Below, one piece after another: positions 10,071-14,915 of a stretch of 64,000 bases of DNA; positions within the stretch are counted from its first letter, which is position 1, and every line of letters starts with the position of its first letter. A program made the translations under genes and the position numbers. A model generated the notes under the pieces. That model made no database searches. It had not been told where the DNA came from and saw only the letters and a program-made list of their open reading frames with translations. Where the stretch lies: positions 6,400,001 to 6,464,000 of the forward strand of contig CM000151.3 in NCBI GenBank assembly GCA_000004695.1, given 5' to 3'. The DNA is from Dictyostelium discoideum (Eukaryota).

Positions 10071-13000
10071 TTAATTATTATTATTATTATTTAAATTAAG
10101 TTTTGATTTTGCAGAAGTAACATTTGTAAAAGATGGTTTATATCTTATAAAAGAATGTTTTGTTCCAGCATTAGATTCTAAATTTGATTTTAATTCTTTA
10201 TCCAATTTCTTTAATTGAAGAAAAGAACTTTGTGGAGTTGAAGGTGGTGAAAATTTGAATGGTAAATTACTATCATTATTTAATGTGTTAATTGATGCTC
10301 TACTTGAACCACCATCATAACTAAATCTTTTAGATTTATGTTTTGAATGAACTTCAAGTGAACTCTTTTTCGAATTGATATCACTTTTAAAGCCAATTTG
10401 ACTACCATTTGTATCACTACCATCGTTTGAATGTAAATCCAATTTTTGTAAATTTGAAATTAAATGATAATCTTTTGTAACTATAACTGGTGAATCAAAA
10501 CCACTATTTGTACCACTTGTACCACTATTTGTACCAGTACTACCAACACCTATATCACTACAAGTTTGAAGTACTGAAACACCACTATCATTATTAGCAC
10601 TATTTGTACCAAGATTTGGACTACTATTATTACAATTATTTAAATTACTATTACTATTATTATTATTATTATTATTATTGTTATTGTTATTGTTATTGCT
10701 ATTATTATTATTATTTTGAACTTGTAATAAATTTAAAGTACTATTTGATTGAGTACGACGTAAACCTTTGAAAGATGCTTTTGCTTTTTGTTCAGTGATA
10801 TCATTTGATTCAATCATTTTACTAATACTATGAATGATGGTATCGAAATAAGGTCTATTTTCAGGATCATCATCCCAACATTGTTCCATAAGATCAGTGT
10901 AGTTTTTATTACAATGCATTGGAATTGGTGGACGTAATCCTTTGAGTACTTGATCTTCAACTTCACAATTGAAAGCTATATGAGAGTAAGGTAGTTTTCT
11001 TGTTACCATTTCCCACATAATAATTGCAAATGAATAAACATCACATTTCTCTGAATACATAGCACCTCTAATTACTTCGGGTGCCATCCAAAGTGTTGTA
11101 CCTTTTTTTGAGTCTTTTTCAACTTTATTATTATCACCACTACCTGTATGTCTATTGAAAAAACCTGCAGTGATTCTACTCCTATTGATACATGTATTGA
11201 AATCTGCTACCTTTATATTAACCTTTGCACTTGTTGATAGGGATGATACCAATAGATTTGGTGATTTCATATCTAAATGTAGTATACCCAATGAGTGTAA
11301 ATAATGTAAACCCTTTGCAATATCCAATGCCATACGTAATACCAATTTATATGGTATAACCAATACAGGATTTGCCAAGACATCCATTAAATTACCACCT
11401 GGTACATATTCCATAACAATTGACCAATTTGCTATCTTTGTACAACCACCAACATATTTCACAACATTTGGATGATTAAACATACTCAATACTCTAACTT
11501 CATTATAGAAATCTTGAATCATCTCTGGTGATGGATCTGCCAATGGATGTAATTTCTTTACTGCTACAATAATTTGTGGTCCACTACCAATAATTGCATC
11601 CTTATTGATTATATCATTTGATGGATTTCTTGCTATTAACCAATTATGACCACTACCACTACCACTACTATTACTACCACTACTATCTTGATTACTAATA
11701 TGACGATTTAAATTATCTTGAGAAATTAAACCACGATAAATATCACCAGTTGCACCTGTACCTAATCGTTCATGTAAAACCACTTCTTTCTCTAAATCAA
11801 TCTCTTTATTACCTGGATGAATATTTTCACATTTCACAGTGATCAATATATGATGTACCTCTCTTTGATTAATAATTAATTGAATCATCTCTGATATTTC
11901 AGTTTCAACAAATACTGTCAATGTCGATTTAATATAAAACCATTCACCTTTTGATACTGTACCATTGGTTGGTACTAATGATAAACTAAATAAATCATTC
12001 TTTTTACCACGTGATGGAAAATGAAATTGAAAAGATGCATCTGCTGAACCCGAATTTGATATTAAGAATTTATCAGTTAATAATTGATAAATTTTCACAC
12101 TCTCAACATCACCAACTGAATTCTTTTTTTGATTACGTTGAAAATTTAATATATATTTACTTAGTTTTACTCTTGCTTGAGGTGTTGGTGTATTTTGATT
12201 TGAAATTGTAATTAATGGTGATGAAGATAATAATCCACTTCCATTATTATTATTATTATTATTATTATTATTATTATTATTATTATTATTATTATTATTA
12301 TTATTATTATTATTATTATTATTATTATTATTATTATTATTATTATTATTATTATTATTATTATTATTATTATTATTATTATTATTATTAATATTATTAT
12401 TTATAAGACCACCACCACCACTACCCCCTACTAAATTTAAACAACCTCCACTATTTCTCCTATTTGAATTTTCAATATTCCAACCATTACTTATATTTAC
12501 ATTACTATTATTATTGCTACCACTACCACCAATACTATTATTACTACCACCTCCTATATTATAACCACTACCACCACCACCATTATTATTATTATTATTT
12601 ATATTTATATTATTTGATAAATGAAGTGGTATTATATTTCTACCATCTAAAATTAATGTATGAGCTAATTCTTGAATTGATTTTACCATGGTTGGATTTT
12701 TTTTCATAAAACTTTCCATTTTCATTTGTTTCTCTAGTGGAAGTACACTACCGGCACAAGATTTTAAAAAGAGTGGAAGATAAGGATCAGTTTCAATCCT
12801 ACAAAATAATGTAAATTCCATACCACCAATAATATGTAATGTACTATAGATATCGGTCTCTATATGATTATATGCCATTAACTCTACTAAAACAGTTAAT
12901 GAATCACCTTTTTGAATGGTTCCACTTGATGGTATGAAATTTAATGTGAAATTTGGATCAAAAGGTGATAAAATCTCAAAATTGAATGAACACCCACCAA

Positions 13001-14915
13001 TATTTGAAATTTGAAATGAATCTCTAACCAAATGAAATACAACAATCTTTGGTTGATGTTTATGAATTATACCACTATTGGCAACTAATTGGTTATATGC
13101 CATTGATGGTGCTGATGTTGATAATAATGGATTTGTTCTCTTTAAAACTCCTCCACCACCACCACCACCATCTTTATTTTGAATTAATTGTAATTTATTT
13201 TGTTGTATTCCTGGTAATGGTTTAATATTTGTATTTGTATTTGTAGTTGTTGGTGCTGTTGTTGTAGTTGTCGTAGTTGTTGTAGTTGTAGTATTCATTG
13301 ATGTTATATTAACCATACCATTAGGACCAACCATACCAACACTTGTTGAAATTAATGGTAATCTTGTTATAGCAGAATTATAAAAAGGTGAATCAGTTCC
13401 ACTACCATTATCACTTGTACTAATATTTCTTGGTGGTGTTGGTAAAGGTTTCTTACTTAAAATAATTGGTGGTTTTGTTGGTGAACTTGATAAAGGAGAA
13501 ACTGATGGTGATACAGTAGTTGGAGAAACTGATGATGATGATGATTGTGAATTATTATCACCACCACCGCCTTTATTATTATTTTTATCTTCACCACTGC
13601 CAACACCATTAATTTTATCATTGTTTTTATTATTTATTTTATTAGCAGAATTTGCTATATTACTACCACTACCACCACCTCCAATATTATTTTGTTGTTG
13701 AATTTTCTTTAATTTTTTATTTAATTCTTCTTTTTGTTGTTGAAGTAAAATTAAATGTTGATGATGAATCTCTTGTAAATTAACGGGTGATTCAGAATCA
13801 ATGTATGATAATGCAGGTAATGTTAAATTATCATGATAAAAATAAAATCTTTTCTTTGATAGATGAACTTTAATTAAATCATTTAAAGACTCTGTTGCAA
13901 TGGTTCTATTTAATAATGATGGAAATGTTGGAATTGATCCTTTTCTATTACTAAATACTAAATCTTTAACTTTTTCCAATTGATGATTTGCTCTCTTTAA
14001 TTTACTATCTTGTGAATTATCACTACTAATTGCTAATTTTATCATTTCAATCCATTTTGATTTATCAAATACAGTTTGTGCTGATATTAAATAAATTCTA
14101 GTTGAATTTGGATATAATTTACTATTATTATTATTATTATTATTATTATTATTATTATTATTATTATTATTATTATTATTATTATTATTATTATTATTAT
14201 TATTATTATTATTATTATTATTATTATTATTATTATTATTATTATTATTATTATTATTATTATTATTATTATTAACTGAATCAGATGATGATCTTAATAT
14301 TGGTTGATTTTGTTGTTGTTGTATAATTGATTGATTCTCTGATATATAATTTGGATTAACTGCAAAACAATGTCTACGATTTCTATGATCAACTTCTTTT
14401 AATTCTGTTTTTTTAGTTAAATAAATTACACCTCTTGGCTTTGTATATTCCCAATTAATTGGTGATAAATAATATGATAATGTTCCTCTTTTTAAAACAA
14501 ACCACCTAATTTTCCCTATTAAATTTTTGAAAAAAAAAAAAAATAATAATAAAGAAATAAATAAAAAAAAAAATAAAAAATAAAAAAATAAAAAAAAAAA
14601 AAAAATTTTTTGTGTTAAAAAGTGTATCTATTTTTAGATAAAAAAAAAAAAAAAAAAAAAAAAAATTTTAAAAAATTAAAATAATATCTTACAATTTTGA
14701 ATTCTTCCACCTTGTTTGGTAAGATATCCAGTGTGCAATACTTGATCATCTATAAAACTATTATTATTACTATTATTTCCACTATTACTATTATTATTAT
14801 TATTATTATTATTATTATTATTATTATTATTATTATTATTATTTTTTATATTACCATCACTTCCACCACTATTGTTAGCAGGTTTAACAATAAGGGTAGT
14901 ACCAACACTTGTCAT
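10071..14915 (-). CDS. Multidomain protein kinase: N-terminal PH domain, poly-N linker, two MSP/ASH-like beta-sandwich domains, C-terminal TKL-type kinase domain, S/N-rich tail. 2 exons: join(complement(14693..14915), complement(10071..14515)), about 1555 aa.
   Basis: Exon 1 (ORF 14676..14915, ...HTGYLTKQGGRIQN) ends at a GTAAGA donor (plus 14687-14692), and a 177-nt intron ends at AATAG (plus 14516-14517). Phase 1 T+GG gives the conserved PH-domain Trp: GYLTKQGGRIQNWKIRWFVLKRGTLSYYLSPINWEYTKPRGVIYL. The frame is continuous through the (AAT)50 tract into ORF 10071..14045 (its listed M is internal). Kinase motifs present: LGTGATGDIY, VAVKK, HLDMKSPNLL, ADFN, WMAPEV, DVYSFAIIMWEM. Confidence 0.85.
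12243..12390. repeat. (ATT)n coding microsatellite, about 49 units, encoding poly-N inside the kinase gene.
   Basis: Pure ATT repeat on plus = AAT (Asn) on the minus coding strand, kept in frame. Confidence 0.95.
14123..14273. repeat. (ATT)n coding microsatellite, about 50 units, giving a poly-N linker between the PH domain and the rest of the kinase.
   Basis: Pure ATT repeat; the frame is maintained across it (checked modulo 3 at both ends). Confidence 0.95.

Follow-up and report, generated by a model that had tools for sequence, protein, structure and literature searches.

A conserved dictyostelid TKL kinase gene encoding a Grp1-like PH domain and tandem ASH-like domains in Dictyostelium discoideum

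The sequence window analysed here covers 64,000 nucleotides of the Dictyostelium discoideum genome (assembly GCA_000004695.1, contig CM000151.3, positions 6,400,001 to 6,464,000) and is very AT-rich (22% GC), with many (AAT)n tracts. At 10071-14915 its reverse strand carries a two-exon gene whose predicted product of 1,555 amino acids combines a PH domain, two ASH-like beta-sandwiches and a TKL-type kinase domain with non-canonical catalytic motifs (Table 1). This gene had been described in an initial annotation of the window; the observation is confirmed, and the coding sequence occupies exactly the same interval. The 4.4-kb open frame at 22% GC, five colinear full-length orthologues (49-57% identity) and the Pfam E-values reported below, taken together, exclude chance. 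An artefactual fusion of two genes is ruled out by the continuous frame and the five colinear orthologues.

Exon 1 starts with an ATG at 14915 and ends with ...CAA AAT T, followed by GTAAGA; the intron has a GC content of 6%, against 23-27% in the exons. Splicing joins T to GG, which makes codon 75 a tryptophan codon and restores the PH motif GGRIQNW-KIRWF, of which NWKIRWF is kept in all orthologues. The full-length orthologues include those of Polysphondylium violaceum, Tieghemostelium lacteum and Acytostelium subglobosum, while the Synstelium sequence is only partial. Residues are called invariant below when they are conserved in all six species compared, which represent the dictyostelid groups: D. 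discoideum and the five species with full-length orthologues. Conservation is concentrated in the two parts of the PH domain, the block following it, a short SPFY motif (residues 450-453), the first sandwich, a helical segment, the second sandwich, the kinase domain and short motifs of the tail, and variable low-complexity stretches are confined to loops and linkers (the N-terminal tail, the PH beta6-beta7 loop, the inter-sandwich linker and the C-terminal tail).

Residues 1-399, poly-Asn run lengths included, are identical to those of DDB0229957 in Table S1 of the D. discoideum kinome (Goldberg et al. 2006, PMC1420674), and the locus is on this identity the gene catalogued under that name. 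The table places DDB0229957 in the TKL group as TKL-Unique, scores it as 'kd' and predicted active ('a'), and lists its motifs as VAVK / HLDMKSPN / DFN. The gene is an already known, functionally uncharacterised one, and the novelty of the present description is low, because gene, kinase class and the two deviating motifs were all published in 2006. The main text and supplement text of that paper, apart from the domain drawings of Figure S3, give neither an ASH domain nor a function for DDB0229957; a literature search by this identifier found no paper mentioning the gene, and no Dictyostelium kinase with ASH domains emerged from a further literature search. Public records of the orthologues already bear PH and ASH Pfam assignments. 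The exact 1,555-residue sequence is not present in a collection of 15 billion proteins, and neither of two homologue searches returned a D. discoideum self-match. Its heavy low-complexity content may explain the omission of the exact protein from that collection.

Table 1. Features of the DDB0229957 locus (window coordinates; all on the reverse strand)
Feature	Position	Strand	Basis or remark
Exon 1	14693..14915	-	residues 1-74 and first base of codon 75; N-terminal Asn-rich tail and start of PH domain
Intron	14516..14692	-	177 nt, GT..AG, phase 1
Exon 2	10071..14515	-	residues 75-1555 and stop codon; frame without interruption
PH beta1-beta6, residues 58-133, intron-spanning	14340..14744	-	Pfam PF00169 and Grp1 alignment
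Poly-Asn insert of 50 residues (156-205), PH beta6-beta7 loop	14124..14273	-	(AAT)n period-3 repeat, 52 copies
PH beta7 and C-terminal helix, residues 207-238, hallmark Trp229	14025..14120	-	aligns to end of Grp1 PH
Conserved block, residues 262-316	13791..13955	-	between PH and ASH domains; many invariant columns in six species
ASH-like sandwich 1, residues 562-650	12789..13055	-	weak Pfam matches, homology to sandwich 2, AlphaFold model
Helical segment, residues 651-704 (DPYLPLFL.xC.G...QELAHT)	12627..12788	-	three helices modelled, predicted local distance difference test (pLDDT) ~88-90
Asn/Gly-rich low-complexity linker, residues 705-854, with 49-Asn run	12177..12626	-	pLDDT <50
ASH-like sandwich 2, residues 855-975	11814..12176	-	joined to kinase domain within ~10 residues
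TKL-type kinase domain, residues 978-1310	10809..11807	-	PF07714 and TKL relatives
Gly-loop GTGATG	11745-11762	-	read from DNA
N-lobe beta2-beta3 insert, residues ~1003-1054	11577..11732	-	Gly-loop-to-Lys spacing
VAVK	11556-11567	-	read from DNA
Catalytic loop HLDMKSPN, Leu for HRD Arg	11256..11279	-	H, L, D, K, N invariant in orthologues
DFN for DFG	11196..11204	-	GAT TTC AAT; invariant in orthologues, then TCIN.SR
APE	11076-11084	-	read from DNA
C-terminal tail, residues 1311-1555	10074..10808	-	mostly low-complexity, with conserved short motifs

The structural interpretation of the initial annotation (a classical PH domain, two beta-sandwiches and a TKL-type kinase) is supported, and hidden Markov model searches matched PF00169 and PF07714. 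The PF00169 match covers residues 60-133 (E=1.1e-12, 48.8 bits, above the cut-off of 25.1). After removal of the poly-Asn loop, the nearest solved PH domains are those of Grp1/cytohesin-3 (E=1.3e-11), cytohesin-2 (ARNO), DAPP1, TAPP1 and pleckstrin-2. All of these PH domains bind 3-phosphoinositides. Residues K67, R71, K76, R78, Y89/90 and R102 align to K273, R277, K282, R284, Y295 and R305 of Grp1, which we take to be its inositol-phosphate ligands, and K67, K76, R78, Y89/90 and R102 are invariant. The basic signature of 3-phosphoinositide binders, K-Xn-(K/R)-X-R in beta1/beta2 together with a beta3 Tyr and a beta4 Arg, is present, and the ligand of the PH domain is likely to be a 3-phosphoinositide. 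With the Grp1 domain (PDB 1fhw, 1fgy) it has in common the GGR..WK.RWF motif, the Tyr and the PRG Arg. In contrast to Grp1, an Arf guanine nucleotide exchange factor whose PIP3 specificity is provided by a structured beta6-beta7 hairpin, the present protein is a predicted kinase and has a poly-Asn loop at that site, the length and sequence of which differ among the orthologues.

The end of the domain, RIYLISAQTVFDxxKWI, is invariant among the orthologues, and the helix FDKSKW229IEMIK aligns with the C-terminal helix of Grp1. The conserved tryptophan of the PH domain had been proposed to be created by the splice. Such a residue, Trp75, is indeed formed across the T/GG junction at codon 75, but it is the subfamily-conserved tryptophan of the beta1-beta2 motif, and the hallmark tryptophan of PH domains is W229.

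The kinase domain belongs by sequence to the TKL group, as had been proposed. Pfam PF07714 (PK_Tyr_Ser-Thr) matches residues 1053-1303 with E=1.5e-51, and the nearest solved kinases are MLK1, DLK, TAK1, CTR1 and Roco4 (E ~1e-35 to 1e-37), with TNNI3K, ZAK and RAF also found. Among database sequences outside the family, the closest are plant kinases of the CTR1/EDR1 type at 35-40% identity. These Raf-like and MLK-type kinases (CTR1/EDR1, MLK1, DLK, TAK1) are thus the nearest relatives of the domain (35-40% identity, E ~1e-37 to 1e-49), although they have different accessory domains, and in the aligned solved TKLs and the Pfam kinase consensus the HRD and DFG motifs are canonical and no insert separates beta2 from beta3.

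The Gly-loop, VAVK, HLDMKSPN and APE are all kept, and the replacements of HRD by HLD and of DFG by DFN, reported earlier, can each be read at the DNA level. Invariant positions comprise G993, G995, G998, K1061, E1080, H1154, D1156, K1158, N1161, D1179, F1180, P1220, E1221, D1233 and R1295, so that the predicted catalytic residues (Gly-loop, beta3 Lys, alphaC Glu, catalytic Asp and Asn, Mg-binding Asp) are without exception retained. L1155 of HLD and N1181 of DFN, standing in place of the HRD Arg and the DFG Gly, are likewise invariant. None of the three residues whose loss would mark a pseudokinase (the beta3 Lys, the catalytic Asp or the DFG Asp) is missing, and the invariance of catalytic residues in six species is the pattern expected for an enzyme and not for a decayed domain. 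HxDxKxxN and GTTLWMAPE in the P+1 loop are signatures of the Ser/Thr type by the criterion given in PMC1420674. In the kinome table of the same source, HLD occurs 10 times against ~204 occurrences of HRD, and the third motif reads DFG in ~215 entries, DFS in 6, DFD in 3, DFA in 2, DFT in 1 and DFN in 1, the latter being this gene.

An insertion of 45 residues rich in Ser, Gly and Asn had been described between the Gly-loop and the beta3 lysine. The insertion is there, but it comprises ~48 residues (26-49 across the five full-length orthologues) and is only partly of low complexity, having a core with invariant H1013, W1033 and P1039, to which the D. discoideum sequence adds an S/G-rich expansion of ~18 residues. 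The distance from the third glycine of the Gly-loop to the beta3 Lys is 63 residues, compared with 41-64 in the orthologues and 15-16 in ordinary TKLs. A model of sandwich 2 with the kinase domain (pLDDT 78.8, predicted template modelling score (pTM) 0.75) places a helix at 1007-1015 directly after beta2, shows disorder in the remainder of the insert and in the activation loop, and extends the C-terminal helix to about residue 1324. Judged by their conservation, HLD, DFN and the N-lobe insert are features of this dictyostelid family and not signs of decay. HLD and DFN, like the full set of catalytic residues, are under strong purifying selection.

The two beta-sandwiches share 31% identity over 77 residues (E=2e-9), and the motif (F/L)xISNxG occurs in both. 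They had been likened to MSP, ASH and PapD domains, and of these labels ASH is the best, since the results of Pfam, profile and Foldseek comparisons favour ASH over MSP. In searches with the whole protein, OCRL-like_ASH matched residues 878-965 (E=1.3e-4, 22.5 bits, below the cut-off of 27). When each sandwich segment was searched separately in four species, the recurring Pfam matches all belonged to the ASH clan (OCRL-like_ASH, HYDIN/CFA65/VesB Ig-like, CFAP65 Ig, Cep192_D6, DLEC1, ASH). Sandwich 1 of the D. discoideum protein gave weak matches of 14-17 bits to Cep192_D6, HYDIN/CFA65/VesB Ig and CFAP65 Ig, and its A. subglobosum orthologue reached E=3e-5; sandwich 2 of P. violaceum scored 27.9 bits, just over the PF21310 cut-off of 27. 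The MSP domain proper (PF00635, VAP-type) had no match at E<=10 in the sandwich segments of the four species, and this part of the proposal was rejected for that reason. A family profile including distant members matched HYDIN (E=1e-8) and the OCRL1 ASH domain (E=1.3e-5) in the PDB.

The fold was examined in an AlphaFold model of residues 555-978 built on a 12-sequence alignment, which yields two Ig-like sandwiches of seven to eight strands, the first of seven strands with pLDDT ~70-90 and the second with pLDDT ~90, together with three confident helices that follow sandwich 1 and a linker modelled as disordered. Foldseek comparison of this model with the PDB found ASH- and PapD-like structures, as the initial annotation would lead one to expect: multi-ASH proteins of the central pair (E=1e-9 to 1e-7), the OCRL1 ASH domain (E=3.6e-8) and PapD-like domains of HYDIN, followed by the ASH domain of CEP192 and only later by the MSP domains of VAP and Scs2. 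The top fold matches all belong to the PapD-like superfamily, none being a classical Ig or FN3 domain. The sandwiches are ~66% identical among orthologues. The region from sandwich 1 through the helices to sandwich 2 shows 54-67% identity to the D. discoideum protein, compared with 63-70% for sandwich 2 and the kinase domain.

Unlike OCRL1 and INPP5B (ASH structures in PDB 3qbt and 3qis), in which the ASH domain accompanies 5-phosphatase and RhoGAP-like domains and no kinase, the DDB0229957 product has no Pfam match to RhoGAP or 5-phosphatase, and sandwich 2 is followed by the kinase. The OCRL ASH domain binds Rab GTPases, as stated in the title of entry 3qbt; the comparison with the present protein is one of sequence and fold. 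The 'extended cradle' arrangement of tandem ASH domains known from Spd-2/CEP192 was also considered; it depends on an inserted bridge within the second ASH as well as on LxGYGG and GDExxR motifs, none of which was seen on reading the alignment.

An exhaustive profile search with the region from ASH1 through the helices to ASH2 recovered only 16 proteins at E<1e-3, including the orthologues and some large repeat proteins. Matches beyond the orthologues include T. lacteum KYR01337.1 (P0053) and H. album XP_020428485.1 (P0061), in which an ASH domain directly precedes a TKL kinase, and two environmental eukaryotic sequences (P0055, P0060) with the arrangements RCC1-ASH-TKL and kinase-helix-ASH-kinase. 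In the proteins of Pigoraptor chileana (P0056) and Ancoracysta twista (P0062), the helical prelude and ASH domain stand directly before a RhoGAP domain. A helical prelude and ASH ahead of the catalytic domain, whether TKL kinase or RhoGAP, is common to all these fusions.

P0053 and P0061 are orthologues of D. discoideum DDB0230133, which Table S1 of PMC1420674 also classifies as TKL-Unique. The DDB0230133 family resembles DDB0229957 in having the helical prelude and ASH followed by a TKL kinase, in the HLD motif (HLDLKPQN), in the ASH domain itself (32% identity, E=1e-6) and in a SLSxxxxVxIK insert ahead of the DFG position. It differs in the absence of a PH domain, in having a single ASH, in its canonical DFG and in lacking the beta2-beta3 insert. 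The kinase domains of the two families are 33% identical, below the 38% to plant CTR1-like kinases, and a sister relationship of the two kinase domains is not supported by identity alone. On account of these values, a common origin of the whole cassette of helical prelude, ASH and TKL kinase in DDB0229957 and DDB0230133 is no more than plausible. These two 'TKL-Unique' kinases may form a small ASH-TKL family.

The domain composition points, with moderate probability, to a cytosolic and active Ser/Thr kinase of the TKL group that is recruited to 3-phosphoinositide membranes and carries the ASH domains as docking or regulatory modules. The PH domain would bring the protein to membranes enriched in phosphatidylinositol 3,4,5-trisphosphate (PI(3,4,5)P3) or phosphatidylinositol 3,4-bisphosphate (PI(3,4)P2), where the ASH domains would offer surfaces for protein docking or regulation. 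ASH2 probably packs on the N-lobe of the kinase, which in turn would phosphorylate Ser/Thr substrates as a catalytically active enzyme. Without the arginine of the Arg-Asp (RD) pair, activity may be set mainly by localisation and by contacts between domains of the same molecule, and less by an arginine clamp on a phosphorylated activation loop. Coupling between ASH2 and the kinase is supported by the spacing of ~10 residues between the end of ASH2 and strand beta1 of the kinase, by the pTM of 0.75 and by the order of ASH followed by TKL kinase in DDB0230133 with P0053 and P0061, in P0055 and in P0060. The earlier suggestion of membrane recruitment joined to a non-RD kinase with altered activation-loop control is, we infer, a reasonable one and consistent with the sequence. 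Akt/PKB and Btk/TEC are comparable by functional analogy only, having a PH domain that senses phosphoinositide 3-kinase (PI3K) products N-terminal to a kinase; they differ from DDB0229957 in their kinase groups (AGC and TK, respectively), in being of the RD type, with control through phosphorylation of the activation loop, and in the absence of ASH domains.

Several observations weigh against this picture of a membrane-recruited active kinase. In the PH domain, R71 is variable and the beta6-beta7 loop, the site of PIP3 specificity in Grp1, is here a variable low-complexity insert, and any predicted lipid specificity of the domain is accordingly tentative. Among PH domains in general, lipid binding is mostly weak or absent. 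The domain could accordingly bind another lipid or a protein instead of sensing 3-phosphoinositides, the location of the kinase being directed by the ASH domains or by motifs of the tail. We consider this unlikely, given that Grp1, DAPP1 and TAPP1 share the invariant K-x(8)-K-x-R-W-F signature as well as the likewise invariant Tyr and PRG Arg, and that the top PDB relatives of the domain are all 3-phosphoinositide binders.

The main rival to an active enzyme is a pseudokinase or scaffold, in which DFN, HLD and the insert would abolish binding of ATP and Mg or phosphotransfer, the domain being kept as an interaction platform. The 48-residue insert between beta2 and beta3 adjoins the ATP-binding strands, and the activation segment contains extra residues (TCINRSR and a disordered loop). 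The conservation pattern disfavours this explanation, as K1061, E1080, D1156, N1161, D1179 and the three glycines of the Gly-loop are invariant in the six species. The DFG glycine is also missing from certain kinases that are active, haspin among them. In the D. discoideum kinome table, with ~230 tabulated kinase domains, this gene is the only case in which that glycine is replaced by asparagine. By the K/D/D criterion of the same source (PMC1420674), however, the domain is scored 'kd' and active, and HLD is found in nine other entries of its table, of which those inspected are scored 'kd' and active. A pseudokinase is on this balance rather improbable, and catalytic activity remains the preferred reading of the domain.

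That the sandwiches are generic Ig-like spacers resembling ASH and MSP domains in fold only and having no ASH-type role is very improbable: ASH2 of the D. discoideum protein lies under the gathering cut-offs of its Pfam families (23.6 against 27 bits for PF21310, 20.5 against 25.5 for PF22544), as do its sandwich scores generally, and the functions of ASH domains are poorly defined in general (PMC11922060), but the profile matches to OCRL ASH and HYDIN, the PapD-like character of all top fold matches, the conservation of the sandwiches at a level comparable to that of ASH2 with the kinase, and the (F/L)xISNxG motif of both sandwiches speak for ASH domains.

Within the proposed mechanism of a kinase governed by localisation and domain contacts, the predicted contact between ASH2 and the kinase depends on the pTM of the model. 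Regulation is the least secure part of this mechanism, since phosphorylation of the activation loop can still be needed by a kinase of the non-RD type, for example EFR (PMC8463890).

The recurrence of the helical prelude and ASH fused directly to a catalytic domain allows a further, doubtful interpretation to which we assign a low probability. The unit may be an old regulatory cassette of the OCRL type that binds small GTPases and makes the kinase a coincidence detector. The kinase would then be active only where the PI3K lipid bound by the PH domain meets Rab-GTP or a similar partner of the ASH domains, for example on macropinosomes or phagosomes, and ASH2 together with the family-specific N-lobe insert might replace activation-loop phosphorylation as the on-switch.

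Beyond the catalogue of 2006 the addition is modest and consists of a recurrent cassette of helical prelude and ASH that is joined directly to a TKL kinase or RhoGAP catalytic domain. The annotation of the gene is refined by the two ASH domains, the Grp1-like PH domain, the conservation of HLD, DFN and the insert, and the link to DDB0230133 and other ASH-catalytic fusions. If the mechanism of PI3K-dependent recruitment is true, Dictyostelium would have in this product a PI3K-effector kinase that does not belong to the Akt/PKB family. Dictyostelium lacks cilia. The protein would also be among the few cases in which the ASH domain, usually associated with cilia, centrosomes and OCRL, is found on a kinase, here in an organism without cilia, and it would offer a tractable system for the partners of ASH domains and for the switching-on of a non-RD DFN kinase.

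Other conserved elements lie outside these domains. The block at residues 262-316 has the consensus SLLNRT...KRKFYFYHDNLT.P.LSY.DS, alternatively written SLLNRT...IKV.LSKRKFYFYHDNLT.P.LSY.DS, and has no Pfam match at E<=10. An invariant motif, SPFY(N/S/T)x(P/A)(I/V)T (residues 450-458, positions 13365-13391, reverse strand), is situated within a variable linker rich in Ser, Thr and Pro; it may resemble the core of the phospho-FFAT motif (as in QFYSPPE of STARD3) and might then serve as a peptide bound by VAP or by ASH domains. The C-terminal tail contains the conserved motifs EQK.KAS..GLRR..S.S (1316-1333), KSKRFS (~1468-1473), LPFKFSPP (1492-1499) and SF(I/L)RYKPSF (1529-1537), and its basic-x-x-Ser patterns resemble phosphorylation sites of basophilic kinases.

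The linker between ASH1 and ASH2, which in the orthologues has only ~25 residues, contains an (ATT)53 repeat at 12243-12401. This is one of several near-perfect (AAT)n tracts of ~50 codons each that encode poly-Asn, the others being found at 14124-14273 and 14759-14843, with a fourth at 10625. The tracts are placed in structurally tolerant sites (the PH beta6-beta7 loop, the ASH1-ASH2 linker and both tails) and are absent or different in the orthologues.

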